A stretch of DNA of 64,000 bases from a virus (IMGVR_UViG_3300037067_017859:45284-109283), one strand, 5' to 3'. Positions 21,471 through 58,347 are shown, counted from the first letter of the stretch. A program made the numbers and translations. Notes: generated by a model not told the origin, from the sequence alone.

Positions 21471-24400
21471 TTACTCTTCCGGAGGTTCCGGCAGACTTCC
21501 GCTATTATTATCAGGTGGAGACTGCAATTCGTTAGTCTTCTTTTTAAATTTACGGATACCTAACTTTTTTAGGGACTTTTGCGCTGTTGCCAGCATTTTC
21601 ATGTAAGCATTATCTATCCTCCTTCTTTTTTCTTCAGAATCGTATTCTCTATCCTGGATCACCCTATGGATTTCCCGATTAATGCTGTTGAACTTCTCAA
21701 CGGCATATTTTAATTCAAAATACCTATCTTTTTCTTCTCGAGTCAACGGGGGGATATCGAACCGATTGTTTTCCTTTAAACTTTGTTTCCGGCTTCTGTA
21801 CCGAAGATTAATTTCATTCCACAATTCATGAACCTTAGAGATGCTTCTTAGGCTTGCATGTGGGAAGCGCACCGCTATCGATCGAATCAGCGGCGTATCC
21901 GCCAACTGAGCAGTTGGCAGAGCCCCGCCCTTTGGAGGAGAAATGATTTTTGAGACTGGATCCAAAAGAAGCTTAGTTGCTAACCTGGCGCTTCCTCCAA
22001 AAGTGGAAAACATAGCATGCTCAATTTTAACCGGACTCACATGAATGCCTGATTTGGCCAGCAATAAAGCCGTTTGATTCGCAAAATGGCTTGTATACCA
22101 GTTTGATCTGTATTCCGGGAGGTAGTTTTTCTGCATCCACGCGCTTTCGATTTCCCTATTGGTGAAGAAATTCTGATTGCGCCATAGTTCGATTGGAGTC
22201 TTAATAATCGTTGGCAACAAGCTTGGTGTAATGTTAGAAAGAAAATTACGGACAAAATCATCAAACGCCGAAGGATCTTTCGTATCTAAATATTCTGCAA
22301 TTCTCTCAGCCGGCGTTGCATAAAACATTCCCCAACTAAACGGTTTTGGAATTGGTATCCATGGAGTCAATCCACTCAAGCCAGGTATCCCTTTGGTTGG
22401 AAACAACCAGAAGAGATCGCGGAGCCACCAAGGAGCTTCGTGGTATCTTTCATCATCTTTATTCAGATAATAAATAATCAGTGATACCAATTGGAACGCG
22501 GCGCCCTTCAGTAAAGCTTTTTTGGGGTTTCTTTTATGGACGCGCACGAATTTGTCCACATCCTGGATGGCTGCATTAAAAAATGGGATGGTTAGATTCA
22601 TGCCTCTCATCCAGGCGCCAATTCTTTGAAAATCAAGATTTGCTTCTCGAGATGCAAATCCGGCAGCCCGAATGGATTCACCCTTTTCTCTTGATTTAGC
22701 GTAGACGGATACTCGAGTCATTGCCTCGGATATTTCACTTAATATTCTCAAAGTATCTATGGGATGACGAACCGCATATTTGAGTTTCCCTGACATCAGA
22801 TCGCGTAAAGCCAGCTTCATTTCATTCCGGTCCATGGAGGACATAGCCGAATGCGGACCTCCGGATCTCATCCATTCCTTGTACGTGGCGTCTTTCATCA
22901 GAACATGAGCAAGCCCCTTGGCTGTATCCCATCCGGGAACATAGCCAATTTCGGTTTGGGCCCATGCGGTAAGCATATCTCGAGCAATATTACGGGAGGC
23001 GAATTCCGGGTTAATCCCGGTCGCGCCGGTTCTGAGAATTGACGCTGGAATAGCAGCAATTCTCATAAGGATGCCGATGGAATCTTTATCTAATCCTTTT
23101 ACAGCTTCATAAAGGTTTGGCTCAAGCTGATATAAGGTCGGTTTCCCTTTAAAATAGACCGTTATGATATTTTCCTTGGGCGAAGGCACGGCATTGTAAA
23201 CAAATATTGTCGCAAGCTGGTCCAGATTAAGATTCGGATCCGCAATATCAACTCCGGCCGCGGAAAGAGCATTTTTGATTCTCTCTAAAGCAAAGGTCTG
23301 TGGAATAGCTTTTGCCGTTAATGGTCCTGAAATCCATCGGCCGGCGCCATCTTCTTTAGACAAATTTGCGAGAGCCTGGCCGACTAGATTACGTTCCGCG
23401 ACATTGATAAGCGTATATGTGTTTTTAATGATTGATTCCAGCGGATCTATAATCGGGCGCCAGGAACCCGTCATTCCCTTGACTGGTTGCCACAAATCTA
23501 CGGCGCTGGATCCTGATTTTAGCCGACTTTCCGTGGATTTCTCGCCGGCTCCTGCTTCATACATTCTATGGAATGGCACAAAGAACTGGTTGAGAAGTTT
23601 AATATTGATATATTGATCAACTGAGAGCATCCCACAATCTCGGAAATATGTCAGAAGATCATCCTGATATTTATAAAGCTTCATCAGGGTGTCTTTTGTT
23701 ATTTGAGCTTCCGGAGTCATTGCCCTCAATGAATTCACATCAAATGCCAATATAGAAGGATGGCCGGGCATTGCTGGAGTTGTTGCCACGGAGAGAGCGC
23801 TTGGATCAAAACCTTGCTCTATCAAAGATTCCCTGGCTTCCTGGACAGTTATCCCGACTTCGATACCTTTGAGTCCTTTCTTTTCTAATGTTCTCAAAGA
23901 AATGGCCGTAATGCGCAGATCGTCTAATCGATCCTTCATTGGTGCAAGAATCTGCTTCAATCCAGGTCCGAGAATACTATCCAGATCTTTACCAAAAGTC
24001 CCTACTTGAAGGAAATGTTCAGCCCTGGCAGCCCACCCGCTTAAAGCTTGGGCAAGCTTGCTTGGATCCTCTTCCATCCTAATATTACGGCCTTTGGTAA
24101 TAATTTTTACCGCTACATCAATCGGATTAAGATGATTGACTATCCCCGTATAAAGTTTTTCAAACCATCCCAGTTGGTCGTATTGTGGTTCTTGTACCGA
24201 GATATGGGATAGAATTTTTGCTGAACTTGTTTGATCCAACCAGCGTTTATAATCTCTCTGAGCTTCCTTTAAAATTTCCGCGAGATCCTGGTTATGGGCC
24301 AGTTCACCTTCAAACATCAGATGAACGCCAGGGCATAATTGCGCCGCCTGCGCCGGATCAGTAATCCAGTACCGGATATATTCAGCAAATCCTTCCGGAA

Positions 24401-27400
24401 GTTTTGATTGGCCGGCCAGTGGCTTTGTGGCGATCGCCTCGAGTTCCGCCCTATGAGCGACAAGAGGCTGCCAATTGAGTTGTTGTCCGCGTTTCCCCCA
24501 CAAAATCTTATTAATAGCATGCCCGACTTCATGAGCCGCAACGGAAACATCTTGGGCTTTTTTAATCCGAATGGCTGTACTATTTATCTTAAAAATGCCC
24601 AAAGCTCTTTGCCGGAATCGTCCATACCTGATAGGCACCTGGAGCTTTTTCGCCAAATTAGTAAGAATGGTATTCCGACTCACCAAATCTTTCTTATCTA
24701 TTACAGGAGGCAGAGCATATTGTCTCGTTCCTGACGTCTGCGGCGGAGCCGGCAGTATCGGAGCTCCCGGAAGACTGGCCATTGGAGATGTAGGCTCTTC
24801 CTCCACTTTCGGCAGTTCTTCGCCTTCTTGGCTGCGCTTTAATTCATCCATCATTTCCTCAACATAAGGGAAATAATGGATTGCTTCTGCCTGGGATTGT
24901 TCCTTATTAAAATCGGCTTCGCTGTTCACATAATCAGTCACTTCTTCTATAACCTGGTCGACATAGATTCTTTCACTCAACCAACCAGAACTATCTTGCG
25001 TGTTAATCCAATTGAGCAGATGTTTCGCTATCACCGGGTTTTGATGAACAATCATTTGATCATTCACTGTCCCCTGGCCATTTAAAATTCTGTCGATGGA
25101 CTCTTGAGCTTGTTTGAGCCAGAAATCCGCCGCCTGTCGCGCCTGTTCAATAGACTGAGGAACATCTCCGCGGCCAACTTCTATTGACCGGGATCCGTCA
25201 TCACCGACATTGAGACCCATTGAAGCAGAACTTGTCGGCCCTCCACCGCTTGGCGCACCAGGAGTCCCTGTTGGGATAACTCGTACCGGCTTATTTCTTT
25301 CAAAGATTTTGTCGAGGAGTTTTGGCCCTTCAATCTCGTCCAATGGAACAAAAGCCCGGGGACGTCTGGATTCGCCTCCAACAATGATTTCGGTAATAGC
25401 GCCTTGTTCGTGGAGCGTCTTAACCGCGGCTTCACGATATGCCCGAGCAAGGTTGATTTCCATTCGACGCTCCCCATGGATTGGGGGTGTCATTTGGATG
25501 CGCCAATTATTATCCAGTTCTATAGTTGCGCCATCACGAACCATAGTAAATATCGAAAGACCTGATTCTTTAGTGAAATCATTGCCCATCCCAAGTCTGC
25601 TTTTAAGCGGCCCAATCTCATTGGTCCTAACCTGAATTCCAATTATTGGGGAACCATCAGCCAGAACCGCTCGAACAATTCTTAAACTATGGAGCTGTCC
25701 GTCTCCTATAATTTTGTCGTGGATTGGGAAAACTGCGCCAGTGACCATATAAACTGGCTTCCTGGTAGTCTCCGGAATTGCAGCAAATTCTTTTTCCCAT
25801 AAATCCTTTGCTTGTTCCAAGCTTGTCACTGGAGGTCCGGGGAGTCTTTCAGGAGTTACTAATTTTTCCTTCGGGGTTCCTTCGACACGTTCATAATTCT
25901 CATTGAAGTCTGAAACCTCAATTCTATTCTTTGTGAATCGAACAGTCCTAAGATCAATTTTCAAAGCGCCTGTTAAAGGATCGACATAATTATAAGCAGC
26001 CGATATTTTCCCGCTACGCTTATTGGTTACAAACCCAATAAGATCTACGCTTCGAGGAATATTATCCCATTTGAGTTTTTCAGTTTTAAAATCCCCTTCC
26101 ATCTCAAGGAATTTTGTTTCCATATGAGAATTGGGATCTTTATAAATAACCTCTTCTTTTGTGATAACAATATTGCTTCCACGGATTTTTGAAATCCCGG
26201 TATCAAAAGTTCCTTGTTCCTTTGCAACTGCGAGATTGGCCTGATAACGGCTGTAAAAGTTATTAAAAATATCGTTTTGAACGTCGACAGGAAGAACCAT
26301 TATGCGATTCAGAAATCCTTCAACATTTGTGTCGACGCCAGGCTTTAATGATCCATTCGGCGTAAGCCAACCCATAGCATCCAAAATATCCATGCTATTG
26401 CCGAAATCTCCTCTCACTTCATAATTATTATGCGCTAAATCGTGAGTGAGAGACATTAAGGCGGTGCGACCATAACCATCTGTAAGATCTTCAATATCAA
26501 ACAGACTGCCGCCAAGAGATTCCCGGTTTCCTTGTGTCACAGCCCCAAGGCTTGCCAGCCGGCGCGAAACAGCATTTATTAATCTTTGCTGACCCATGAC
26601 ATTGGTTTTAACCAGCATAATCACGGGAGGAGTTACTTGATTGGATCTGTGAGCCCGGCCAAAGAACTGCATTTGTTGATCAGCAGACCAGGACAATTGG
26701 GCGCAATACATTATCCGGCGCTTGCCTTCGGTGGGAATGCCCCTTTCAGATTGAGCCGAAATTCCGGCGCTGCCGGCTCCGGTGATGATCAGAACATCGG
26801 CTTCACCGTTCTGGAATCGGCGCAGTTCTGCATTATTGATTGTTTCCCCGGGTTTCTTCCCGGCCGGCTTGCGGCGCACAAGTTTATTGCCTTCAATTCT
26901 TTCAGTACGACCGGATATTTCGGCTACTTTTCCCCATCCTCCAAGATGATTCGCAATCATATCGATAGGATTATCCGGGAGGTTCAGATACTCGAGTTCA
27001 TTCAGAAGATCTTCTTGCATGCGAAGGTTCTCCTGATTGATTTCTCCAGTTGGCACTTTAATTGTTGATTGCGGGTTGTCCGGGTCCGGGACGTCTTCAT
27101 ATTCATCGAGAGGAAAATAGTTTTCAATATAGGACCGGATCATTTGACGTGGCCCAATATCAATATCTTCAATGCTTTTTCCGGCCGCCTCTGCTTTAGC
27201 GACTTCCTTCCGCATTAATGTTTCGTTTGTGCTGAGAATATTGACAATCGGAGCCATACCCTTTTTAAGGGATTCATCCAAATGAGTTAAAACAGATTGC
27301 ATCTGGTAAGTCGTCATCAGCATCAGGAAAAATCTTTGTTGAGTGCTGTAAAACTGAGAATATCGCGTCCCCCCATGACTCTGATTGGCGTTAGCCTCAG

Positions 27401-30400
27401 CTTCCTCCATTCTCTTTATCAGGGCAGACCATAATTTTGCAGATTTATTGTATTGCTCAAGTTGATATTCATTGAGATCGTGGTTCACATAATCGTAGTT
27501 CACCCCACGGTAACTGATCTGCCGACTTATAAATGATCCAAGGGATTTCAGATCTCGAGAGAGCATCTCCATGGCTCCCAATCCCCCGGCATTCATTGCA
27601 TTCATAAAAGCGTCGAAGTCTGCAAATGCCGTTCCTTGGCCCCATAATCCAAGCCTATTCATGTACCCCATGTTATGGGCGAGAGTGGCCCCGGTAGCAC
27701 TCACATAGAGTATCTTGGCCTTTGGGAACGTCTCAGCAAGCAATAGACCCATCTCGCCGCGGTCGGTGCCGGTTGCGCTCGTTGAAGCTCCACCCTGATT
27801 ACTGCCAACGGCATTTTTCATCGCGTGACATTCGTCAAAGATAATAACGCCTTCGAACTCTTTATCGGCTTCTGTAGGCTGTAGCCAATTGACAATCTGA
27901 TTGAACCGTTCTCTTTTTCCCTTCCAGTCCGCTGCTGCGGTCATATATTGGGTGAAGAGAACTCCTTCGGTATTGTCGATAGGAACGCCCTTTGCAAATC
28001 TGGATTCATTCTGGTGAATAACAGACAAAGGTACGCCTACTCCTCCGATATCTCTTTTGGCATCCTCAAATAATTGTTGAGTGGCTGAAATCCAGACAGC
28101 TTTCTTCTGCCCGGTTTCTCGAAGGTAATGATAAATAATCCCTGCTCCTTCTCTTCCTTTGCCAACTCCAGTCCCATCGCCAATCCAGAAACCGGCAGTT
28201 TTACCATCCGGTAAAGTGGTTCCGAATCTTTGAATTGCATAGGTGATTGCCTCTAATTGGGCAGAACTCAATTGCCCGGTTGATATGACTTCTGCCGGCA
28301 GGTTGAGTTTCACCGTAATATCTGGCGCTTCCACGCTGCCCAAAGTTGCACTTTCAATAAGGTCGGCAGGGTGAGGTTGAGCACCTTTGTAGATAGCCTT
28401 CCTGGGCTGATATTTCACATAAGCATCTGTTTCCTCTTCTCCGAGAACTTTATTCTGCGCATCGAGTGCTATCTCGATGGGAGCCACGTCCCCCGGGCCT
28501 CCAGAAACAGGAGCACCATGTTCTCCGCCCAATCCGGGAGCTTTTTCAATTCGTTCGGCATCGGAAGGTTTTCCTTCAATATGAGTTGGTGGAGGTCCCG
28601 GGATACTCGGTCCGGGTCCTCGCTCTCCGCTTTCAGGAATGTGTCCCAATTCACCGGGTCGAGACTCATTCCCGGTCGGTACGCCAGGTCGCCCTCCGGT
28701 AACGCCAGGCATTCCACCACCAGTTCCGACAGGGGGTTCTGCCGGTCCAATGACTGGCCCCGCAATCGGAGGAGGAGCTTGGATGCTTTCGATTGGCTTT
28801 GGTCTAGTGATTCGTTCATGGATATCCTCTGCTGCAATGGTGCTTAACTTCTCCAAGGCTTCCCCAGGAGTAAGCTGGTGATCCATTAAAACTTTTAAAC
28901 TTCTTTCTGCCCCTGTATCTCCCGGGGTAGGACCAGTTTTATCAATAACGATCAGCCGATTGTCATAGGTGGTTCCCATCTTCTGATAGTAACTACCCTT
29001 TAATCCAAGATCTGCCCGGACGTTGTAATGAGCCTGAACTTGATTCCACCATTTGTTGAATTTTGATCTGTGATGCCCCATCCCTTCACCGACAATAGCA
29101 ACCAGGCGGCCGCCTGGCGCGAGTTTTTGCAGGGCATTCATTACATGCCGGGCGCCAAACTCCATGCCATGCAACTTACCAGGTCCGGCCGAGAATGGAG
29201 GATTCATGAGGATTACATCTGGAGTGTAATCCGATAAGGACGTTCCTGTGGTCGTAAGATGCAATGCATCCACGGTAGTCGTCGGGAAGTTTCTGAGTTT
29301 CAAGACAGTGACGCGGCGTTCATCTATCTCGTTCGCCCTGACTTGGTATCCGTGGATTCTCATCATCGTCGCCAGCATTCCAGTGCCAGCGCTTGGCTCT
29401 AAGCCCAAAAGAGGAGAGCTTGAATTTCCCAAAGCGTATGCGGCTAAGAAAGCTTGCATAGGCGGCGTTGAGAATTGTTGCAAATCAATCTGTTCGGTTG
29501 TCCGATCGGATTGGACGGCAAGACGATTCTGAAGCTCTTCCAGCCGGGTCATGGTTGCTAATGGATCATTAAAATCAACAATGCCGCTTTCTTCGATGTA
29601 TTCCGAAACGGCGCCTTCGAAGACATCATACATATCCCGAAGAGTGTATTTGCCTTGCCCTCGTTCTCCGCCGAAAGCTTCATTGGCCATAGCCTGAAGT
29701 TTTGGATTATTGAACTTTTCTCCATTCACTAAAGCTGTTTTGACCTTATCGAGAAAAACCCTGAATTGCGCATTTCTGGTAATCTCTTCCGGTTGCGCAG
29801 GTTCTTTCTCAACTGGAGGCTCTGGTAAAACATCGAGAATAGTAGGCGGCGTTACTGGAGGAGGCGGTGCAACGAGTTCTTCAGGAACGGGAGGTTTTCC
29901 CGGGGGAGTTACGACTTCCTCTGGTTTCTGTCCTTCGGCCGGAGGAGGCGCAAGAGCTTCTGCTTGTCTGACAACAGATGCCTTTTCTGGATTCAGTACA
30001 ATAATCTGATCAGCCAAAGCTTGACGGAAAAATTTATTATCAGTTTTATCCGCAATCTCTTTTACATTCTTTAAAACGACTGCATCATATTTCTTGGCAA
30101 CCGCCTTCCAGAATTCCGGATTATCACGATAAAAAGCTTGTCCTACCTTAGAGGCAAGAGACTTGATTGCTTGTTCTGAATCCACAACAATTATTTTGGC
30201 CCCGGGATCCAGTCTAAACTCAACCGATTCGAGTTGAGTTTTTTTGACTTGAGCTCCTACCTTTGCTTTCCATTTTTGCGCCTCATAATCATAGAAAAAC
30301 TCAGCGCCTTTTGATTTCAACTCCTTTTCATTTTCAAGAGTTATATCAACGGTTACATCTTCTCCTTCCCGGCTTAATACCGATGACCATGTATCATCAT

Positions 30401-33400
30401 CAAGTGACAGATAGATGCTTTCACCGGCGAAGCGGCTGGTTTTCGGTCCTGCACCTAAATCACCAGTACCATGGATAGGTATCTGTTTGAAATCAAAGGG
30501 AACGCCTGATTCCAATGCCTTCTTGGCTTCCTTGGAAGTGAAATGCTTAAATATCTGTCCTCCATACTGAGTTGGTGCTTCTGGAGTCGGCTCTGGTTTT
30601 GGAGTTGTTTCAGGGGCAGGCAGAGTTTCCACTGGAGGCGGCGCAAGTTCCTGACGTTGATCGACAGTCCCTTTGGCAATCTCTTCGGCTGATCCAGTAA
30701 GGAAACGGAATTTCCCCTTGCCTTCAACCTGTCTTTTGAGAAGTTGCAATTGAGCTCTTAAATGCTCAGGCTTGGTAACTACAGTCAGAAATTCTTCCCA
30801 GGCGTTCGTTTCTGGATTCCACTTTTCCGCTCTCAACCCTATCGAGGTTGCCGCGGATTTTGGATCCAGGATCCCCATGAGCTTATGTTCTTCCCCATTT
30901 TCGATTGCCAGAAGAATATCGTCTTCTGTAATCATGTTGGGATGATAAAAGAAGGTGCCCTTGCCTGGAACGTCGACGTTCTGTAATTGTGGGATTTCGG
31001 CGACTATTGAGAGGAAATCATTTATCAGATCGCGCTTTTGCCAATCTTGCAACGTCGATTCTGGAACAAACACAACCCGACGCTCTCCACTTCCAATCGT
31101 TTCTATTTGAGACAGAACTGTAGAAGGTTTTTCTGGAACAGTTACCTCGGGCGCTGCCGGCTCCGTGATTGTTTCTGGTCCCGTGATCGATTCAGGAGTA
31201 GGAGGAAGTGATTCAGGTTTTTCATACCGCGGTTCAAGCTTTCCTTCAGCCTCAGCCGCCGCTTTCCTGCCCTTCATTGTCTTGAAAGCTGCCTCTGGAG
31301 ATTCTTCGATCCCATAGGAAAAACCAACTTTCATTTGATCATCGCCAACGATGAAGGGGTTTTCGTCAAACCACTTCTGAGCCTTCTCCATCGCCGCATC
31401 AATTTCTTCCTTCGTATCAGCTTTGGTAACGAAGTCATCTCCACCCAGGCGATATACGGATATTCCAGACTGAATAAATCCTTGGGCTGCATGCTGTAGG
31501 TATCTATCACCCTCATCTTGACCATAGACATCATTGATTTTCTTCATTTTGTCTAAGTCAAGAGAAGCCACGTACTTTTTGAAGGGAGCTCGTTCCCAGG
31601 CGGATCTATTACGAAGCTGAGTGAGTTCATCCGTAAGGAGTTCTTTCTCAATTTCCTCCCGGCTCATCTGAGAAACTTGTTTTCTCCGTGGCCAGTTTTG
31701 CCGGCGATCGGTCTTATCTTCCCTCGCAACTTCTCTTCTATCTACATCAGTTCTGCCGATAGGGAGTTCTTCCGTTGGAGTCGTAGGAGCGCCTGGTGTG
31801 GTTGGCGCTTCGGGTGTGGTAGTCCACTTGCTAGGATCGTAAACCTTATAAGGCCATGAAGGTTCTGTTTTAAGATCTTTTTTTGCCTTTTCAGCCTCCG
31901 TTACATTCCTGATGGCAATGACTCCACCAGCTTCCGGAATGCTATCAAGTTCTGCCTGGATTTTATTTACTTGATCGGCCGCATAAGCAAAACCAGTGTC
32001 ATCTCCTTTTGTTTGCGCCTCGTCCCGGCGCTTAATCATCTCAAAAAGCTGTCTTCCAAGAGAATCTACCCGAGGATCTCTTGTACGCATAACCATGACT
32101 GCTTTTGATCCAGTAAGCTTTTCAAATTCCGCTACCTTCTTTTTGGCATTCGATTCGGCTGCATCAATCTCGTTTTCCAATTGCTGGACTAAGAAGTTTT
32201 CATTTTCTTTAGAAGATTTAAGAAGCCCGGCTATAACATCTGGAGGAATATCTGTTTTACTTAAATAATCAACATACTCTTGATGCCGTTGGCTCACCGT
32301 ATTTCTGAGATAAACCCTAGCCCTGGATGCACCGATTGCAGAGGTAAAAGCAGAGAAGACGGCTCCTGAAACACCACCAGCGATGCCTTGGCGATTGTCT
32401 TCCTTCATATTCATTGGTTCGCCAGAAATACTACTGACAACCCAATCTTGACCGATATTTTGCATCCACTCTTGCCCGAACTCCTCGAGATAGCCTTTAG
32501 CGGATCCGGTCAACATCCCGCGCTTTATCCGGTCTTTAATCCATCTTGTGGCCCATCCTCCACTAATTTTGTCAAGCCTCGAAAGTCCACGTTCAATTGG
32601 CAATGCTTCCGTTGCACCCAATCCAACACCGGCAATAAATGCTGCAAACAATTGGGTAGGATTCGCGCCGGCTTTGTAAGCCTCTTCATAAGTTGATCCT
32701 GCCTGGACAAGAGCACCAGACGCCATAGTAGTGGCCGCTACTGGTAAGCCTGCTTCTCCACCAACTAATCCCATCGCAATGAATCCGATAGTGGACCCGA
32801 GCCCTTGGGGAATCATCGACGCCCAATATTCTTCTTGGAATTTTGGATTTACTGGAAGGCGATCTTCAATCTTCCGTTGGACATCATTTGCCATCTTGTA
32901 AAGTATTGAATTTTCCAGTTTAGGCAAAGGTTCAGGCTCGAGCCCTTTTTCTATCCGGCCGACACCTTCTATCTGTTGCCCGGAAATTTCAGCCAAATGG
33001 GGTATAGCACTAATGCTTTTTATTGCCATTGGCACTTGATCTGCAATGCCTTGGAAGAAAGAATTCACAGCATTTGACATGCGATCGGTAGGAATAGGAA
33101 TTTTACTTTCCTTTATCCTTTGCAGATTCAATTTCGTCATCTGCTCCGGTTTAAGTTCCTCCGTTTTTGTCTTAACATGTTCTAATTTAAAATAAGGATG
33201 CCCGTTGATTATGGTGACTGAAGGTATCGGCTTCCGCGCTTCTTGTAATGCCCTCTCCTTAATCTCTCCTTCGGATACAATTGACTCAGGCAAGGATGGG
33301 ACATTTGGCAATTGCCCCGGAGTGGGCATTTCAACCTTGGCTTCCTCTATTTTCTGAGGTTCAAAAGCCTTACTTACTTTCTGTTCACGCCCCTTTATGA

Positions 33401-34166
33401 TCTTGCCTTTTTGTTCTGGAGTGAGTGTCTGTAATTCCGTTGGTAATTGAAAAGTCTTTGCCCTTTCAACTTCCGCAGGAAGATCAATCGCAATATTTCC
33501 CATCGATGGAGTTCTGAGTCCCGGAGTATCTTCCTTTTTGGTATCCACTCCATTTACAAACCGATTAGGATGATCTTCATCCTTCCACCGACTAGGCCAA
33601 TGATATAAACCATCCTCGGCAAGAATCGGTTGTTGTTTGGCTTTAAATGCCCCTCGATAATCATATTTATGAAGGGGGTTATCTGGATCAGGATCAATCC
33701 CCGCCTTCTGTGCCCATTGGCTATACCATTTTTGGAATGCCTTCTCTTGGTTGGGCTGCAATTGAGTTCTTGGCCTTACTATTTCAGGTTCTTTCTTTCC
33801 CTTTCCCTGTGGGGTTGGCTGTCCCTTAACTCCTTCAGGAGGAGGCGGCAAGCTCGGAGCAAAGAATTTTCCAATAGCGCCGGTAACTTTTTCAATTATG
33901 CCGGGTTCTTTTGGCTTTGCAGCTTCATCTTTGTCAGCGAAGTACTTCTGCCAGTATTTGTGATTTTGCTGGAGGGTTAAATCCTGAGATTCCTTATCCA
34001 GATTAACCAATTCAGGATCGATAGTTTGAAGCAGATTCCTCCGTACCTCTATATCGTCGATACCATGGAAATTGGGATCGAGAAGCAGATCACGCGGAGT
34101 TTTATACTTCTTCTTAAAATTATTCTGCCAGTCAAGATTGGTTGCAGGAGAGGCCCCGGTAGACAT
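21471..34166 (-). CDS. giant polyvalent virion/ejection protein (GGDEF, ART-like, DNA methyltransferase, strawberry-notch helicase, HExxH peptidase, LPD38-like)
   Basis: 4231 aa; TDELT..RNR/DLDK..KIND/RLGGDDF; EPSAGTG and NPPF; GDGTGVGKGRE, DECH, SATG, QFFGRAHRSNQ; HEVGH; C-terminal IPIPKPF. Confidence 0.9.
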   Translation of the reverse strand: MSTGASPATNLDWQNNFKKKYKTPRDLLLDPNFHGIDDIEVRRNLLQTIDPELVNLDKESQDLTLQQNHKYWQKYFADKDEAAKPKEPGIIEKVTGAIGKFFAPSLPPPPEGVKGQPTPQGKGKKEPEIVRPRTQLQPNQEKAFQKWYSQWAQKAGIDPDPDNPLHKYDYRGAFKAKQQPILAEDGLYHWPSRWKDEDHPNRFVNGVDTKKEDTPGLRTPSMGNIAIDLPAEVERAKTFQLPTELQTLTPEQKGKIIKGREQKVSKAFEPQKIEEAKVEMPTPGQLPNVPSLPESIVSEGEIKERALQEARKPIPSVTIINGHPYFKLEHVKTKTEELKPEQMTKLNLQRIKESKIPIPTDRMSNAVNSFFQGIADQVPMAIKSISAIPHLAEISGQQIEGVGRIEKGLEPEPLPKLENSILYKMANDVQRKIEDRLPVNPKFQEEYWASMIPQGLGSTIGFIAMGLVGGEAGLPVAATTMASGALVQAGSTYEEAYKAGANPTQLFAAFIAGVGLGATEALPIERGLSRLDKISGGWATRWIKDRIKRGMLTGSAKGYLEEFGQEWMQNIGQDWVVSSISGEPMNMKEDNRQGIAGGVSGAVFSAFTSAIGASRARVYLRNTVSQRHQEYVDYLSKTDIPPDVIAGLLKSSKENENFLVQQLENEIDAAESNAKKKVAEFEKLTGSKAVMVMRTRDPRVDSLGRQLFEMIKRRDEAQTKGDDTGFAYAADQVNKIQAELDSIPEAGGVIAIRNVTEAEKAKKDLKTEPSWPYKVYDPSKWTTTPEAPTTPGAPTTPTEELPIGRTDVDRREVAREDKTDRRQNWPRRKQVSQMSREEIEKELLTDELTQLRNRSAWERAPFKKYVASLDLDKMKKINDVYGQDEGDRYLQHAAQGFIQSGISVYRLGGDDFVTKADTKEEIDAAMEKAQKWFDENPFIVGDDQMKVGFSYGIEESPEAAFKTMKGRKAAAEAEGKLEPRYEKPESLPPTPESITGPETITEPAAPEVTVPEKPSTVLSQIETIGSGERRVVFVPESTLQDWQKRDLINDFLSIVAEIPQLQNVDVPGKGTFFYHPNMITEDDILLAIENGEEHKLMGILDPKSAATSIGLRAEKWNPETNAWEEFLTVVTKPEHLRAQLQLLKRQVEGKGKFRFLTGSAEEIAKGTVDQRQELAPPPVETLPAPETTPKPEPTPEAPTQYGGQIFKHFTSKEAKKALESGVPFDFKQIPIHGTGDLGAGPKTSRFAGESIYLSLDDDTWSSVLSREGEDVTVDITLENEKELKSKGAEFFYDYEAQKWKAKVGAQVKKTQLESVEFRLDPGAKIIVVDSEQAIKSLASKVGQAFYRDNPEFWKAVAKKYDAVVLKNVKEIADKTDNKFFRQALADQIIVLNPEKASVVRQAEALAPPPAEGQKPEEVVTPPGKPPVPEELVAPPPPVTPPTILDVLPEPPVEKEPAQPEEITRNAQFRVFLDKVKTALVNGEKFNNPKLQAMANEAFGGERGQGKYTLRDMYDVFEGAVSEYIEESGIVDFNDPLATMTRLEELQNRLAVQSDRTTEQIDLQQFSTPPMQAFLAAYALGNSSSPLLGLEPSAGTGMLATMMRIHGYQVRANEIDERRVTVLKLRNFPTTTVDALHLTTTGTSLSDYTPDVILMNPPFSAGPGKLHGMEFGARHVMNALQKLAPGGRLVAIVGEGMGHHRSKFNKWWNQVQAHYNVRADLGLKGSYYQKMGTTYDNRLIVIDKTGPTPGDTGAERSLKVLMDHQLTPGEALEKLSTIAAEDIHERITRPKPIESIQAPPPIAGPVIGPAEPPVGTGGGMPGVTGGRPGVPTGNESRPGELGHIPESGERGPGPSIPGPPPTHIEGKPSDAERIEKAPGLGGEHGAPVSGGPGDVAPIEIALDAQNKVLGEEETDAYVKYQPRKAIYKGAQPHPADLIESATLGSVEAPDITVKLNLPAEVISTGQLSSAQLEAITYAIQRFGTTLPDGKTAGFWIGDGTGVGKGREGAGIIYHYLRETGQKKAVWISATQQLFEDAKRDIGGVGVPLSVIHQNESRFAKGVPIDNTEGVLFTQYMTAAADWKGKRERFNQIVNWLQPTEADKEFEGVIIFDECHAMKNAVGSNQGGASTSATGTDRGEMGLLLAETFPKAKILYVSATGATLAHNMGYMNRLGLWGQGTAFADFDAFMNAMNAGGLGAMEMLSRDLKSLGSFISRQISYRGVNYDYVNHDLNEYQLEQYNKSAKLWSALIKRMEEAEANANQSHGGTRYSQFYSTQQRFFLMLMTTYQMQSVLTHLDESLKKGMAPIVNILSTNETLMRKEVAKAEAAGKSIEDIDIGPRQMIRSYIENYFPLDEYEDVPDPDNPQSTIKVPTGEINQENLRMQEDLLNELEYLNLPDNPIDMIANHLGGWGKVAEISGRTERIEGNKLVRRKPAGKKPGETINNAELRRFQNGEADVLIITGAGSAGISAQSERGIPTEGKRRIMYCAQLSWSADQQMQFFGRAHRSNQVTPPVIMLVKTNVMGQQRLINAVSRRLASLGAVTQGNRESLGGSLFDIEDLTDGYGRTALMSLTHDLAHNNYEVRGDFGNSMDILDAMGWLTPNGSLKPGVDTNVEGFLNRIMVLPVDVQNDIFNNFYSRYQANLAVAKEQGTFDTGISKIRGSNIVITKEEVIYKDPNSHMETKFLEMEGDFKTEKLKWDNIPRSVDLIGFVTNKRSGKISAAYNYVDPLTGALKIDLRTVRFTKNRIEVSDFNENYERVEGTPKEKLVTPERLPGPPVTSLEQAKDLWEKEFAAIPETTRKPVYMVTGAVFPIHDKIIGDGQLHSLRIVRAVLADGSPIIGIQVRTNEIGPLKSRLGMGNDFTKESGLSIFTMVRDGATIELDNNWRIQMTPPIHGERRMEINLARAYREAAVKTLHEQGAITEIIVGGESRRPRAFVPLDEIEGPKLLDKIFERNKPVRVIPTGTPGAPSGGGPTSSASMGLNVGDDGSRSIEVGRGDVPQSIEQARQAADFWLKQAQESIDRILNGQGTVNDQMIVHQNPVIAKHLLNWINTQDSSGWLSERIYVDQVIEEVTDYVNSEADFNKEQSQAEAIHYFPYVEEMMDELKRSQEGEELPKVEEEPTSPMASLPGAPILPAPPQTSGTRQYALPPVIDKKDLVSRNTILTNLAKKLQVPIRYGRFRQRALGIFKINSTAIRIKKAQDVSVAAHEVGHAINKILWGKRGQQLNWQPLVAHRAELEAIATKPLAGQSKLPEGFAEYIRYWITDPAQAAQLCPGVHLMFEGELAHNQDLAEILKEAQRDYKRWLDQTSSAKILSHISVQEPQYDQLGWFEKLYTGIVNHLNPIDVAVKIITKGRNIRMEEDPSKLAQALSGWAARAEHFLQVGTFGKDLDSILGPGLKQILAPMKDRLDDLRITAISLRTLEKKGLKGIEVGITVQEARESLIEQGFDPSALSVATTPAMPGHPSILAFDVNSLRAMTPEAQITKDTLMKLYKYQDDLLTYFRDCGMLSVDQYINIKLLNQFFVPFHRMYEAGAGEKSTESRLKSGSSAVDLWQPVKGMTGSWRPIIDPLESIIKNTYTLINVAERNLVGQALANLSKEDGAGRWISGPLTAKAIPQTFALERIKNALSAAGVDIADPNLNLDQLATIFVYNAVPSPKENIITVYFKGKPTLYQLEPNLYEAVKGLDKDSIGILMRIAAIPASILRTGATGINPEFASRNIARDMLTAWAQTEIGYVPGWDTAKGLAHVLMKDATYKEWMRSGGPHSAMSSMDRNEMKLALRDLMSGKLKYAVRHPIDTLRILSEISEAMTRVSVYAKSREKGESIRAAGFASREANLDFQRIGAWMRGMNLTIPFFNAAIQDVDKFVRVHKRNPKKALLKGAAFQLVSLIIYYLNKDDERYHEAPWWLRDLFWLFPTKGIPGLSGLTPWIPIPKPFSWGMFYATPAERIAEYLDTKDPSAFDDFVRNFLSNITPSLLPTIIKTPIELWRNQNFFTNREIESAWMQKNYLPEYRSNWYTSHFANQTALLLAKSGIHVSPVKIEHAMFSTFGGSARLATKLLLDPVSKIISPPKGGALPTAQLADTPLIRSIAVRFPHASLRSISKVHELWNEINLRYRSRKQSLKENNRFDIPPLTREEKDRYFELKYAVEKFNSINREIHRVIQDREYDSEEKRRRIDNAYMKMLATAQKSLKKLGIRKFKKKTNELQSPPDNNSGSLPEPPEE

Positions 34167-40581: not shown

Positions 40582-43500
40582 CTAAAAACTCTGAGGGGGA
40601 ACAAGTTTTATTCTGGCGTATCCATCTTCCCCATTCATGGTTTTGATTTCGACTTCGCTCTTTTCCCAATAAAGCTGGAAGGCAAAGGATGATGTGAAAA
40701 TAAGTCTAAAAAGTCTTCCGCGAATGGCGCTCTCCAGATCTACTCGTATTTTGGAATGTCCTGTTGCTCTTCGATCTGCCACGATAGTTTTTGTCGAAGC
40801 CAGGACATCATCAGCATAGAGTTCCATCGTTACATCAGAATCCGGATTTTTCATGGCAATCCAGAAACGACGAATTATCTTTGTCCGATCGTAATTCATC
40901 AACTGTTCGTAAGTATCCGAAAAGGTCACATCGGCCGGATCCTTATCGATTACAAACCTCGCGCTATAAACTCTGACTCCTTGTGGCAGACAACAGAAAG
41001 GATCGAGGTAATCTTCGTCGACGGTGAGGCGTCCAAGTTTTCCGAAGGAATCCTTCTCAATAGAATGAGTCACCAATTGCCTGGTCGCACATTGAACGTC
41101 GAAGCTTTCCTTGATTGCGCCATCAAGCCAGAAGTCAAAGGTTATAGGTACATTGTTGGTATCGATATCCAGGACTACTTCTTTCCATAGCTTTGGATAA
41201 GGCCATTGTTCTTCTGACCAGGGCATCTGGAAACTATTAATCAGCGCCGGCTCTTCGATCACAGTAAATTTGTGGGCATAAACCTTAACTTCATTTTCTC
41301 CGGTCGGAACAATTTTCAATCTAACCAGAGTTCCTCTGATATCAGGAGGAAGCCCATAAAAGAATCTTTGCCGGCCCGTACTGGTTGTGTTTGCCCGGAT
41401 CGTAGTGGCTAAAGCTTGATCGACCTGAACCTGGATCTCCTCGAGAGGGGCTCCAAAGGTATCCAATTCAATCATCAATTCTCTGAAATATTTTTGAGTC
41501 GGGACACCGCAATCATCCCACTGTGTAACAAAGGTTCGGTGTCGAATTGGCTCAATCAATATCCGGTGAATGATCTTGTAGAATCTGGTTAGACCTGTGG
41601 CCGTTATTAAGGTCGTCGCCATCATCCTGATACGGGTTCTCCGGCAGAATTTACCTTCTGACACACCGACAAGAATTGGAAGGATCTTTTGCTCTCTCCC
41701 CGAAGTGATTACGCTGCCCATCGGATCTGGTTCAGCGCCGTCGAAAGAAAGCTGGACTGCAATTGCGTATCCCTGAGTATCCACGTCAAAGACATAATCT
41801 ATAAATTGCTTTTCTTGGTCGGGCATGCCAAGGTCATAATCTTTGGTATCCACAACCCAAGATATTCCCTGAGCGCCGTCTGCGCAGTAATCGACAAAAC
41901 CCTCCTCGAGTTGAAGAGGCCAATTACCGCCATAAAGATAGGAGACAGGTCCATCGAGGATGGAGGCCCCCATCGCCACATTGCAACCGACTAGAATGTT
42001 AGTATTGGGTTCACTAAATAGACATTGAGCGCCGTATCCATAAAAATGCCAGCGTTCATAGAGCATGTCCCAAACGTACATTCCATCATTTTTAATTGAG
42101 GTATCAGAGGACATTGGGAAACTGAAATACATCTTTGAATCCCAAAAGGCCATTGCAGCAAGGTATTCCCGGCCTTTTATCATCCCTGGCATGCTATTCA
42201 TGGTCTCATTTTTAAAGACCTGGTTTATGGGTTCGCTAATTTTACGACCAGATGGAAACTCATAAATTCCATCATATGCCTGCATATAAAGTCCGCGAGT
42301 CCCCCGCGCCAGGCCATGAGGATTGATCAAACCTTGGTTGACGGCTGTCGACGGCGCCGAATAATCGCTAAGGGTGGAACCTGTGATTCTATAGACTCGA
42401 GTCAGAGTAAAAACAAAGAGTTCTCCGTCATGTTCCATTACTCTTTGAATTTGCTCTGATCCGGCGCCAACATAGATATAATTCTCAGCCGGGAAGAGTT
42501 CTATTCTAACCCTCTTTGAAAATCTCAAACGATTAGGCGGCTCAGGGATTACATTTCCATCGGAATCTGTATAAGTTCCGCCCCATGTCCAAAGTCGATT
42601 ATCGTAAACCTCAATTCCCAATACGTTGTCTACAGGCAACTGGTTATCCAGTTCTGCGGGATCTCCTAATTCAGAATCAGGAATATTGTCTAAGAAGGCC
42701 GCCGGCGTTCCTCCTGAAACATAGTCTATCTCCGCAACGAATTGGAATTGCGTAATAGTGCCGCCCATCCTATATATTCTGATTTTGTCCGGATTTGCCA
42801 ATGGAGGAGTGGTGAACGGAGAAGGCGGAAAATACAAATTCACCTGTTCGTCGGTCAGGGGCCCGAGATTGTTAATAAATATATCAGACAGATCACTTTC
42901 GGTATCCGTCTTGCTGTCATAATAAGTGTAGGCCCATTGAAGATCGCTCCCGATTAATTTGCCAGTGGGAGAATAAGTTACACTATCGAAACTGACACTG
43001 TTGGTTTTCCCGCCTGTGGCTGGATCAATGTTGTCAATTTCAAGGCTGATCCCGCTAATCGTGTTCCATCCGAGGGCTGATTGAGTTTCCCCGCTATTAT
43101 TCTGAAAAACAAAATCAGTTTTAGCAATTTGAATTTCTGTCCAAGTGCCAACAACGAAGGTGTCAAAATCTGAAAATGTTCCCGTAGCGAAATACTGATA
43201 GTTTGATCCTGTATCTCCCGGGATATCGCTAACAACCAGAATGATTTTAATCGCCGCAGCATTGGCAATTGCCTCAGCACTGTTAAACTTCACCCAAACT
43301 TTTATATATTCTCCGGGGTCGGACGATCCCATATCAACGATGATGAAATTGCCATATTCATTGGTAAAAGCTTTTGTCGCTCTTCCCATGACTCCATCTC
43401 CGGTAATGTCTATCTGAATAGCATTCCCGGTTTTCCCGACCGCATCATTAGAAACGGTCCCTTTATTGCACAGAGGAACACCCAAAGAAGAAGGGTCAAT

Positions 43501-44880
43501 CCCTTCAGAGGGCTCGTCGTAAATGTCGGTTAGAGCCATCGGAGCGGCGTTTACCAATCTCAGGTTATCCGGATCCGTACCAACATAAAGATTCCAGGAA
43601 ACTGCGCCTACGGGAGCCGTGTCGGCTGCATCGTAAGTGTTGACAACATAAGCCAATCCAATTTTATCAATATACCTATGAGCGCGTCCCTTAAACCCCA
43701 TGAGAAGATGAGAAGCAGTAGCAGTCCCGGCCGGAACGTCTATGCTATAGGCGGTTGTCGTTATGGCGCCAGCACCGGAACCACCGTAGGAAACGGTTCT
43801 TTTATTGGTCGTGAGGATCATGGAATAGACGTAAGTTCCGGACAGGAAAACCCCATATCCTCCATGGATATTTGTTATATATTCATCGATATCCAGCGTA
43901 AGAGTGCTAACCGATCCTCCCTCGCCGCCATGCTGACCACCGTGCGCTGGACCATCAGTGATCGTACCATCCGGAGATTGATACACCAATTGAACCATGT
44001 CGATGTAATCACCCGCCAGGACTTTGATCTGATAAACCCTGGATCCGGCAGGAAACATCGTCAGATCATCAGTAAAGGCGTCTCCTCCAGCGCCGCCATA
44101 TTCAGAAGTATAGGCCATGGTAATGTCAGGCTTTTTCCAGAAAATTCGTGCGGATTTTTCTGGTGGAATCCAGACGTAAGGATTAGATATTCCGCTCGGA
44201 CAGCTTTCAACTGCGCTGCCATCAATAAAAGTATGTTTGGCGTAATACCATCGAGGTCCTAAAACTCCAGGACTATTTCCCCACCAAATCGTAGGACAAT
44301 AAGGCGCTGCGACTGCGGCGGCGTCTCCACCTGTCCATTTGGTGTAATCTTCGCAGGCTTCAATTACCGTATCTGTAGTTGGGACAACAGCTATCGATTC
44401 CAGAGGTTTTTCTGGTCGAGGGATTCCAATTCTTCTTAAAGCGTCGGCATTCCCTGAATGCTTCAAGAAAACAGTCCCATCCGCCATAATCATGTAGGGT
44501 TTTGTTTCTATGCCGCTCAAGGTATAGTTAGCAAAGAACGCCCGTGGGTCCACCCCAGTAGATAAATTAGAACCGCCTGATACTGGTACAAAATCTGATG
44601 GGATTGGAGAAACTTGAGCGATATATAATTGCCCACCGGCAATCACATATCGCCAAACATTTCCGTCATAATCTTTCATTAAGTAAGACGAACAAGGGAT
44701 TGAGGTCAAACCTGCATTTAAACGAGCGAAACCTTTTCTCACTGCAAGGGAATTCTCACGATCAGTGAAAACATTCACAAGCGCGGTGTAGGCGTCAATC
44801 GGAATCTCATCCGGAGCAGCCTTTAGAATAATGCCTTTATTGGCAAAAGTTATAGGGATACTCTTAATTTCCTCAGCCAT
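40582..44880 (-). CDS. tail nozzle/hub protein (P22 gp10 or tubular-B-like) with jacalin-like lectin insertion
   Basis: 1432 aa; N-terminal LVNV...LAVRKG; NRLW...RLRFS propeller segments; repeated C-terminal modules. Confidence 0.7.
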   Translation of the reverse strand: MAEEIKSIPITFANKGIILKAAPDEIPIDAYTALVNVFTDRENSLAVRKGFARLNAGLTSIPCSSYLMKDYDGNVWRYVIAGGQLYIAQVSPIPSDFVPVSGGSNLSTGVDPRAFFANYTLSGIETKPYMIMADGTVFLKHSGNADALRRIGIPRPEKPLESIAVVPTTDTVIEACEDYTKWTGGDAAAVAAPYCPTIWWGNSPGVLGPRWYYAKHTFIDGSAVESCPSGISNPYVWIPPEKSARIFWKKPDITMAYTSEYGGAGGDAFTDDLTMFPAGSRVYQIKVLAGDYIDMVQLVYQSPDGTITDGPAHGGQHGGEGGSVSTLTLDIDEYITNIHGGYGVFLSGTYVYSMILTTNKRTVSYGGSGAGAITTTAYSIDVPAGTATASHLLMGFKGRAHRYIDKIGLAYVVNTYDAADTAPVGAVSWNLYVGTDPDNLRLVNAAPMALTDIYDEPSEGIDPSSLGVPLCNKGTVSNDAVGKTGNAIQIDITGDGVMGRATKAFTNEYGNFIIVDMGSSDPGEYIKVWVKFNSAEAIANAAAIKIILVVSDIPGDTGSNYQYFATGTFSDFDTFVVGTWTEIQIAKTDFVFQNNSGETQSALGWNTISGISLEIDNIDPATGGKTNSVSFDSVTYSPTGKLIGSDLQWAYTYYDSKTDTESDLSDIFINNLGPLTDEQVNLYFPPSPFTTPPLANPDKIRIYRMGGTITQFQFVAEIDYVSGGTPAAFLDNIPDSELGDPAELDNQLPVDNVLGIEVYDNRLWTWGGTYTDSDGNVIPEPPNRLRFSKRVRIELFPAENYIYVGAGSEQIQRVMEHDGELFVFTLTRVYRITGSTLSDYSAPSTAVNQGLINPHGLARGTRGLYMQAYDGIYEFPSGRKISEPINQVFKNETMNSMPGMIKGREYLAAMAFWDSKMYFSFPMSSDTSIKNDGMYVWDMLYERWHFYGYGAQCLFSEPNTNILVGCNVAMGASILDGPVSYLYGGNWPLQLEEGFVDYCADGAQGISWVVDTKDYDLGMPDQEKQFIDYVFDVDTQGYAIAVQLSFDGAEPDPMGSVITSGREQKILPILVGVSEGKFCRRTRIRMMATTLITATGLTRFYKIIHRILIEPIRHRTFVTQWDDCGVPTQKYFRELMIELDTFGAPLEEIQVQVDQALATTIRANTTSTGRQRFFYGLPPDIRGTLVRLKIVPTGENEVKVYAHKFTVIEEPALINSFQMPWSEEQWPYPKLWKEVVLDIDTNNVPITFDFWLDGAIKESFDVQCATRQLVTHSIEKDSFGKLGRLTVDEDYLDPFCCLPQGVRVYSARFVIDKDPADVTFSDTYEQLMNYDRTKIIRRFWIAMKNPDSDVTMELYADDVLASTKTIVADRRATGHSKIRVDLESAIRGRLFRLIFTSSFAFQLYWEKSEVEIKTMNGEDGYARIKLVPPQSF

Positions 44881-57372: not shown

Positions 57373-58347
57373 TTACAGGGTATTTACTCCGGTGAGCATG
57401 AAGAACAGCCTTGGCGCCGGAATCAAAAGATTCCCGGAGAAAAGGTATTGGCCAGCGACGTCATCCGTGTTCTGCGCTTCCTTGAAACCTGTGAATCCGA
57501 ATTGATACTTCGGCAGGGTGGAAATCCAGAACTGGATGTATTTGGTATTCAGGCCGAAAATATATCCGGCAGGGGCATATTGATCGACGGTGATCGAAGA
57601 CCCATTCCATCTCAATGATTGGAAGCCGATCTTGGCAACATCGGTGTTCTCTTCGAGAAACCGTTGTTGTGGCTGGATCTTGTTCCAGATCATGTCCCAA
57701 ATTAACTGGCTGGTAACGATGAGATCGATATGTTCATTACCGAACCATGAGGCGCCATACGCAGCTTGCAGGCCAAGCATTGTGAATGGATTGAGGGTGT
57801 TGACGTATCCGTTGATGCCTTGGTTGTTGGTGCCGGCAACGATCCCGAGATCCGTACGGGTTATCCCGCCATAAGACGGATAGGTATTGCCGTTATCCAA
57901 AGCTTGTTGGAAACCGTCGAGGTTGATGGTCGCCGAATTAACTCCGGTTCCATCCAGGAAAATGTCCGTGCCAAGCAATTTGGCCATCTTGCCGGAAGCG
58001 TTTACCATCTTGCTTTCGACATAATTCATTGCGGCGTCCGGTCCACGAGCCAACACGTTATCAGTTCCGAACAATGTCACGTTGACATAGTAAAACTTCG
58101 GATTGACCTCGAGGGCAGTGTCGGTTTGCACGTACGTAATATTGAAGGTGCCACCGCGTTGGAATGCTCCGCCGTTCAATTCAGCGTACGCTATTGGGTG
58201 CCGAATAGTCGTACCACCTTCAAAGCGTTCTGCATTCCTCGTACGAAGCCGGGTGAAGACAGGAGATGATTTATACACGTTGTCCACGAGCCGTGGAACG
58301 ATATGTTTGTTCACCTTACCTGTTATGTCATCCCAAGTAAGAGCCAT
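57373..58347 (-). CDS. major capsid protein
   Basis: 324 aa; LVDNVYKSSP...GGTTIRHP...LDGFQ...YGGITR...GFQSL...YIFGLNTKY; follows the scaffold gene. Confidence 0.88.
   Translation of the reverse strand: MALTWDDITGKVNKHIVPRLVDNVYKSSPVFTRLRTRNAERFEGGTTIRHPIAYAELNGGAFQRGGTFNITYVQTDTALEVNPKFYYVNVTLFGTDNVLARGPDAAMNYVESKMVNASGKMAKLLGTDIFLDGTGVNSATINLDGFQQALDNGNTYPSYGGITRTDLGIVAGTNNQGINGYVNTLNPFTMLGLQAAYGASWFGNEHIDLIVTSQLIWDMIWNKIQPQQRFLEENTDVAKIGFQSLRWNGSSITVDQYAPAGYIFGLNTKYIQFWISTLPKYQFGFTGFKEAQNTDDVAGQYLFSGNLLIPAPRLFFMLTGVNTL

Follow-up and report, generated by a model that had tools for sequence, protein, structure and literature searches.

The closest described relatives of the element examined here are the polyvalent proteins of phages surveyed by Iyer, Burroughs, Anand, de Souza and Aravind in 2017 (PMC5512222), who reported GGDEF domains in such proteins, called them 'not very widespread', and predicted that they are injected and interfere with host nucleotide signalling. 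One of their examples combines a GGDEF domain with SNF2 ATPase, methylase, peptidase and ART domains (PMC5512222). Here we analyse a GGDEF domain within a 4231-residue protein (P0001) encoded as a single open frame at 21471–34166, minus strand, of a 64,000-nucleotide stretch of viral DNA (IMGVR_UViG_3300037067_017859:45284-109283; hereafter the window). The window comprises the final 64 kb of a 109,283-bp IMG/VR virus record, rated complete by CheckV, from an uncultured phage. Like the 2017 proteins (e.g. Acetonema longum WP_004096050.1), P0001 is a giant that joins a GGDEF domain to a DNA methylase, an SWI2/SNF2-type helicase and a zincin-type motif, and its gene lies near portal-type genes; unlike them, it carries a helicase of the rarer Strawberry-notch type, and its signature reads GGDDF in place of GGDEF or SGDEF. 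Both the architecture and the idea of signalling interference thus date from the 2017 catalogue, on which the GGDDF clade and the Strawberry-notch partner are only small variations. No experimental test of a virion-borne GGDEF domain was found in the literature.

Beyond the polyvalent proteins, the domain can be compared with three kinds of GGDEF protein. With canonical diguanylate cyclases (PleD, WspR, DgcZ; PF00990) it shares the fold, the Mg-binding Asp, equivalents of K332, N335, D344, R366 and K442, and the N-terminal LT.L.NR hairpin. It differs from them in having no inhibitory RxxD site (I-site), no sensor or receiver domain and probably no R446 equivalent, in carrying Asp as the fourth signature residue, and in its Arg-rich extension and its setting inside a 4231-residue phage protein. 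Stand-alone phage GGDEF proteins (Bordetella phages CN1/MW2, Pseudomonas YuA-like phages, Bacillus phage G gp350, SP-15) have the same fold and ~30% identity, but they are small separate proteins of ~150–250 residues, whereas the domain described here is a module of a polyvalent protein encoded in a virion gene block. GSU1937 of Geobacter sulfurreducens, a Hypr GGDEF enzyme, likewise has a GGDDF signature and no partner EAL or HD-GYP domain, and is active (PMC8835794). It is a cellular membrane signalling enzyme that makes cyclic GMP-AMP (cGAMP) and has the Hypr Ser at the D344 position, where the window's domain keeps Asp (PMC8835794).

Profile and structural comparisons agree on the identity of the domain. 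By subfamily alignment it spans residues 820–985 (31212–31709; the gene and all features within it lie on the minus strand), with conservation from D820 to P984 in 163 copies and an AlphaFold2 predicted local distance difference test score (pLDDT) above 90 over most of its length. Its core, residues 845–958 (31293–31634), matches PF00990 over profile positions 3–135 of 161 (42.5 bits against a cut-off of 23.8, E 7.3e-11), and the excised residues 800–1000 (P0002) match NCBIfam TIGR00254 with 46.4 bits against a cut-off of 37.4. A phmmer search of PDB sequences returns diguanylate cyclases only (best 3icl, E 1e-8). The AlphaFold2 model of residues 800–1000, built from a 15-row alignment, has a mean pLDDT of 84.6, and its order of helices and strands agrees with that of the matched GGDEF structures. 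Foldseek matches the model to PleD (9g85, E 5.5e-10) with probability 1.00, and to Dcsbis, SiaD, SadC and DgcZ also at 1.00; 97 PDB chains score E ≤ 0.001, and among the matches listed all are diguanylate-cyclase or GGDEF-domain structures. Against a viral library, Foldseek matches the model to phage-encoded GGDEF proteins and to part of one large viral protein.

Because of these profile scores and this fold, the domain is real far beyond chance, and residues ~820–985 are near certain to be a genuine GGDEF domain. A preliminary description of the window, made from its sequence, had placed a GGDEF domain at 31260–31750, corresponding to residues ~806–969, and had proposed HMMER against PF00990 and structure prediction as checks; both checks, together with TIGR00254, bear that assignment out. 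The same scores and fold rule out a chance motif match. A Cas10/mCpol-type palm, which the letters 'GGDD' might suggest, is also ruled out: the family consensus is SGDEF and every match is a GGDEF protein.

Residue equivalences to PleD were drawn from its active-site sequence together with HMMER alignments to PDB sequences. D870–D887 align without gaps to PleD D327–D344, so that D870 corresponds to the Mg-binding D327, K875 to K332, and N878 and D887 to the guanine-reading N335 and D344, while Q883 falls at H340. Likewise, R906 is the counterpart of R366, G908–F912 of the PleD GGEEF sequence at 368–372, and K968 of K442. The domain thus keeps D870, which is invariant in all 163 relatives in the phmmer alignment, as well as K875, N878, D887, R906, the acidic signature pair D910–D911 and K968. 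Subfamily residue R971, likely from its spacing to be the counterpart of phosphate-binding PleD R446, is Ala in the window's clade. The signature GGDDF (residues 908–912; 31431–31445), read from the translation, lies outside the canonical pattern [G/A/S]G[D/E]E[F/Y], its fourth residue being D rather than E. Since an active GGDDF enzyme is on record, this departure lowers confidence in activity and does not exclude it.

At the position of the RxxD I-site, nine to six residues before the first Gly of the signature, the sequence reads Q-S-G-I, and the site is missing. The preliminary description had read the GGDDF signature, the missing I-site and the His-to-Gln change in the NDxxGH motif (Q883) correctly. 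Outside the Pfam model, the domain begins with an Arg-rich N-terminal extension (residues 820–844; 31635–31709; DRRQNWPRRKQVSQMSREEIEKELL) in which AlphaFold2 predicts two short helices and in which 80% or more of the 163 copies keep each of R821, R822, R828, M834, E838 and L843. An Arg-rich segment had been described as preceding the domain. Such a stretch (DRREVAR..DRRQ..RRK) does span residues 809–829, but it is more than a neighbour, its distal half (D820-R-R..R828-K) forming part of the subfamily's conserved extension. The [DE]RRx[DN] motif of the extension is itself formally an RxxD, ~85 residues upstream of the signature.

When 1.84 billion cluster representatives were searched exhaustively with phmmer, 453 matched at E ≤ 1e-10. 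The best 150 of the 453, six giants from a separate search and the window's protein were analysed together, giving 156 proteins with 163 domain copies. The best 150 are overwhelmingly giant proteins; 119 of the 156 exceed 1000 residues, with a median of 1870. The domain is found, mostly in giant proteins, in hundreds of clusters at 50% identity, in contrast to the 'not very widespread' of 2017. The aligned copies define a distinct GGDEF subfamily, in which an N-terminal extension with the consensus [DE]RRx[DN]...RKRV.EM[ST]PEE, outside the Pfam model, is followed by an LTGL.NRRA hairpin, DxD[SG]LKW.ND..GH.AGD, the signature, FSYG and a C-terminal helix A[DE]..L...K..RE..G.RA.RGE.P. The residue before the signature is more commonly H than R, and no RxxD I-site occurs anywhere in the 163-copy alignment. 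Every canonical catalytic residue is kept in 114 of the copies, and 23 have N in place of D at guanine-reading position 887. The survey of GGD[DE]F conservation proposed in the preliminary description recovers that motif in part, as GGDEF in 30 copies and GGDDF in 5, but SGDEF (89) and KGDEF (13) fall outside it. Two tandem GGDEF copies are found in 7 of the 156 proteins (P0011, P0012, P0013, P0035, P0045, P0078 and P0082) and could form a built-in pair that replaces intermolecular dimerisation; tandem copies are what one would expect if two domains have to meet. At the phmmer level only 10–20 of the 156 proteins share the methylase–helicase or LPD38 modules, and the GGDEF module sits in many differing architectures.

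The GGDDF signature is confined to five representatives that form the window's clade (P0001, P0003, P0004, P0005 and P0009) and also share the changes R855S, H883Q/L/E, D961F, R971A and R977L/I/V. Selection on the domain was estimated against the ortholog in a related 109,212-bp genome (L001; IMGVR_UViG_3300037067_015039), at a synonymous divergence (dS) of ~1.1. The ratio of nonsynonymous to synonymous divergence (dN/dS) is 0.043 for the PF00990 core and 0.049 for residues 820–985, compared with 0.049 for the Strawberry-notch (Sbno) helicase, 0.060 for the methylase and 0.091 for the whole gene. The GGDEF domain is under strong purifying selection, constrained like the helicase and the methylase. 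Between P0001 and P0004, P0005 and P0009, the GGDDF cassette is 54–66% identical, while other segments are 26–33% identical or have no detectable similarity. Because dN/dS is low and this is the best-conserved segment among otherwise largely unrelated giants, the module is functional, and it acts like a cassette that is conserved and can be transferred.

The 4231-residue protein almost certainly belongs to the phage-type polyvalent proteins as Iyer et al. 2017 understand them. It contains several unrelated enzymatic domains (GGDEF, methyltransferase and Strawberry-notch helicase) and an LPD38 domain, its gene has a place among virion genes, and its modules are set apart by Pro-rich linkers. 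Pfam recognizes GGDEF, MTS, AAA_34, Helicase_C_4, ResIII and LPD38 in it. Upstream of the GGDEF domain lies a Pro/Thr-rich linker (residues 780–800; 31767–31829), evident from the sequence, and residues 800–819 just downstream of it have pLDDT below 50 in the model. A Pro/Glu/Thr-rich linker follows the domain (residues 984–1015; 31122–31217), and pLDDT is low in the model's C-terminal tail. Further along are a small methyltransferase domain (residues 1593–1710; 29037–29390; Pfam MTS, 28.3 bits), which also matches PHROG DNA-methyltransferase families, and the Strawberry-notch-type helicase (26190–28376), composed of AAA_34 at residues 1931–2241 and Helicase_C_4 at 2399–2659 (Pfam, 326.8 and 197 bits). 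A zincin-type HEVGH motif can be read at residues 3212–3216 (24519–24533), where Pfam peptidase matches are all sub-threshold. The C-terminal module (residues 3450–4231; 21474–23819) includes LPD38 (PF18857, 97.8 bits against a cut-off of 27) and matches phrog_9854 (E 2e-88) as well as podophage proteins by tblastn. Nine unassigned pieces of the protein, including residues ~1230–1420 and the HEVGH region, gave nothing significant in Pfam.

Some features of the giant gene stand apart from the GGDEF domain. The module at 29907–30479 (residues ~1230–1420) is nearly all missing from the 83%-identical ortholog P0003, in which 13 of its codons align, and it is therefore a cassette that one of two close phages has gained or the other has lost. 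The Pro/Gly-rich linker between methylase and helicase (28377–28799; residues ~1790–1930) has a dS of 0.28 and a dN/dS of 0.54 against L001, compared with a dS of ~1.1 in the rest of the gene; this could reflect low-complexity alignment noise or a recently exchanged segment. The entire 4231-residue protein (21471–34166) contains only four cysteines.

The giant gene belongs to a single same-strand block with portal, major head, SU10-adaptor-like, internal-virion-like and tail-assembly-like genes, the SU10-adaptor-like protein being a weak match below the Pfam cut-off. The portal, major head, internal-virion-like and tail-assembly genes lie upstream of it on the same strand, and methylase, SbcCD and DnaB genes come after the structural block. 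The portal gene (61793–63685, minus strand; phrog_156, E 7e-16) has Bacillus phage PK1 as its closest cultured relative, and the major head gene (57373–58347, minus strand) matches phrog_9953 (E 8e-34). A further gene (40582–44880, minus strand) encodes a 1432-residue internal-virion-protein-like product with a Jacalin domain (phrog_511, E 6e-12; Pfam Jacalin, 68.6 bits), for which tblastn found no match among cultured phages. By tblastn, the C-terminal ~780 residues of the giant protein are homologous to gp44 of Pelagibacter podophage HTVC034P and gp20 of Bacillus podophage Page, at 25–28% identity over ~90% of the query, and Bacillus phage PK1 also has this module. These findings agree with the virion-protein context given in the preliminary description.

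The podophage homologs offer a guide to how the protein may be used. Proteins of the T7 gp16 slot sit between internal-virion and tail-fibre genes. HTVC034P gp44 is preceded by the genes for tail tubular proteins A and B, an internal-virion-protein-B-like gene and gp45 and is followed by the tail fibre, which by gene order is the slot of T7 gp16, a protein of the ejected internal core; Page gp20 is located after the tail-fibre genes. Both differ from the giant protein in length (1229–1679 residues) and, as annotated, have no recognised GGDEF domain, and their link to T7 gp16 is one of gene order. LPD38 is listed as confined to polyvalent proteins of the phage type (PMC5512222). We consider packaging of the giant protein into the virion somewhat probable, and packaging followed by ejection is plausible because of the podophage synteny of the C-terminal module.

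We propose, tentatively and with slightly less than even confidence, that the domain is an injected cyclic-dinucleotide synthase free of feedback inhibition. The GGDEF domain would be one cargo module held between flexible Pro-rich linkers, and the LPD38-containing C-terminal module would be the conserved anchor of podophage internal-core proteins. The giant protein would be made late and packed in the head, and would enter the next host together with the DNA. GGDEF chemistry requires dimerisation. The module would pair with a second copy, for which several copies per virion would supply the partner; alternatively, the conserved N-terminal helices could provide dimerisation. The paired modules would condense two GTP to cyclic di-GMP (c-di-GMP) or to a cyclic dinucleotide much like it and, lacking an I-site, would be free of product feedback. 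The second-messenger state of the host would thereby be changed before phage genes are expressed.

Several observations weigh against this proposal, and some of them concern catalysis, for which the prospects in the GGDDF clade seem evenly balanced. Position 911 is E in 157 of the 163 copies and in canonical enzymes, and D911 is for that reason most simply read as derived; R855, D961, R971 and R977, conserved in the wider subfamily, are lost in the window's clade. The preliminary description had cautioned that the E-to-D and H-to-Q changes might mean an altered product or a binding-only domain, a caution that was justified and, given these four further losses, understated. One rather unlikely alternative is that the GGDDF-clade domain is catalytically weak or dead and serves as a nucleotide-binding, regulatory or scaffolding module that senses GTP, holds a nucleotide or docks to host GGDEF or EAL partners. 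Coordinated derived changes at subfamily-conserved positions (E911D, R855S, H883Q, D961F, R971A, R977L) would fit such a role, a degenerate GGDEF motif usually goes with inactivity, and PA3258, a GGDDF protein, has been reported inactive, with no cyclase phenotype (PMC8835794). Strong purifying selection suits binding as well as catalysis. Yet the domain keeps every metal- and base-binding residue and the two acidic positions of the signature, the remaining subfamily looks catalytically intact, there is no RxxD I-site with which to bind c-di-GMP, and GSU1937, the sole biochemically tested stand-alone GGDDF domain, is active (PMC8835794). That GSU1937 is a Hypr-type cGAMP synthase also speaks for an active cyclase with a product other than c-di-GMP (3'3'-cGAMP, c-di-AMP, a linear dinucleotide or a short oligonucleotide); as a decoy or competitor, it might work against cyclic-nucleotide-based immunity. 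In phage defence, other cyclic nucleotides are made by related palm enzymes (mCpol/OptS, Cas10) (PMC12657218), the clade-specific changes in the phosphate-binding helix could alter the chemistry, and the N found at position 887 in some relatives points the same way. We nevertheless judge this very unlikely for the window's domain: the guanine-specifying N878 and D887 are both kept, the Ser that marks Hypr enzymes is absent, and no sequence feature indicates a particular alternative product. Equally improbable, in our estimate, is a neofunctionalised origin of the GGDDF clade as an offshoot of injected SGDEF cyclases, whose coordinated changes in catalytic motif and phosphate-binding helix would let it make another product or trap nucleotides, jamming or decoying cyclic-nucleotide-based immunity at entry instead of raising c-di-GMP.

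The remaining objections to an injected synthase concern delivery and the signalling circuit. Delivery is argued from synteny for an uncultured phage, neither an EAL nor a PilZ gene was found in the phage genome to suggest a c-di-GMP circuit, and as a late gene product the giant protein would be present in the producing cell too. The protein, or its GGDEF part, might thus not be delivered by the virion; it might instead act late in the producing cell, on the envelope or matrix before lysis, or the putative HEVGH peptidase might cleave the module off so that it is left behind. Transcription together with the late structural genes would be compatible with this, as would the HEVGH motif and the Pro-rich linkers that flank the modules, and there is a precedent in P1 DdrB, which is processed before packaging (Iyer et al. 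2017, PMC5512222). Against it stand the homologous C-terminal module in the podophage ejected-core slot, the classification of LPD38 proteins as phage-type polyvalent proteins that are predicted to be packaged (PMC5512222), and the fact that large proteins, the N4 virion RNA polymerase among them, are injected whole (PMC5512222). We regard the non-delivery of the domain as quite unlikely.

The habitat of the phage is groundwater, and a sequencing-run search shows that a landfill metagenome from a separate study holds most of the stretch; the runs listed as holding it are groundwater and landfill DNA runs only, and no RNA run is among them. Megablast of the giant gene found nothing among 50,697 phage records, which speaks against near-identical cultured phages among them. 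A pattern scan of genome contigs returned 80 loci; because the pattern also fits ordinary cellular GGDEF domains, these tell little of hosts. In L001 the giant gene begins 693 bases from a contig end, whereas the window's record has it ~30–43 kb away from one. The two assemblies are permuted with respect to one another, and this suggests that the genome is circularly permuted or terminally redundant. The replication/accessory part of the window contains a single tRNA-Met (CAT) gene, at 2916–2987.

The subfamily, with its SGDEF consensus, Arg-rich extension, missing I-site and almost constant occurrence in giant phage proteins, provides concrete constructs for testing, and in the GGDDF clade nature supplies a variant with which to ask what residues determine activity and product. 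Should the domain be both active and delivered, the phage would rewrite a central bacterial second messenger within seconds of entry, without gene expression. If true, this would be a form of host takeover comparable to that by T4 Alt or the N4 virion RNA polymerase, acting on signalling.

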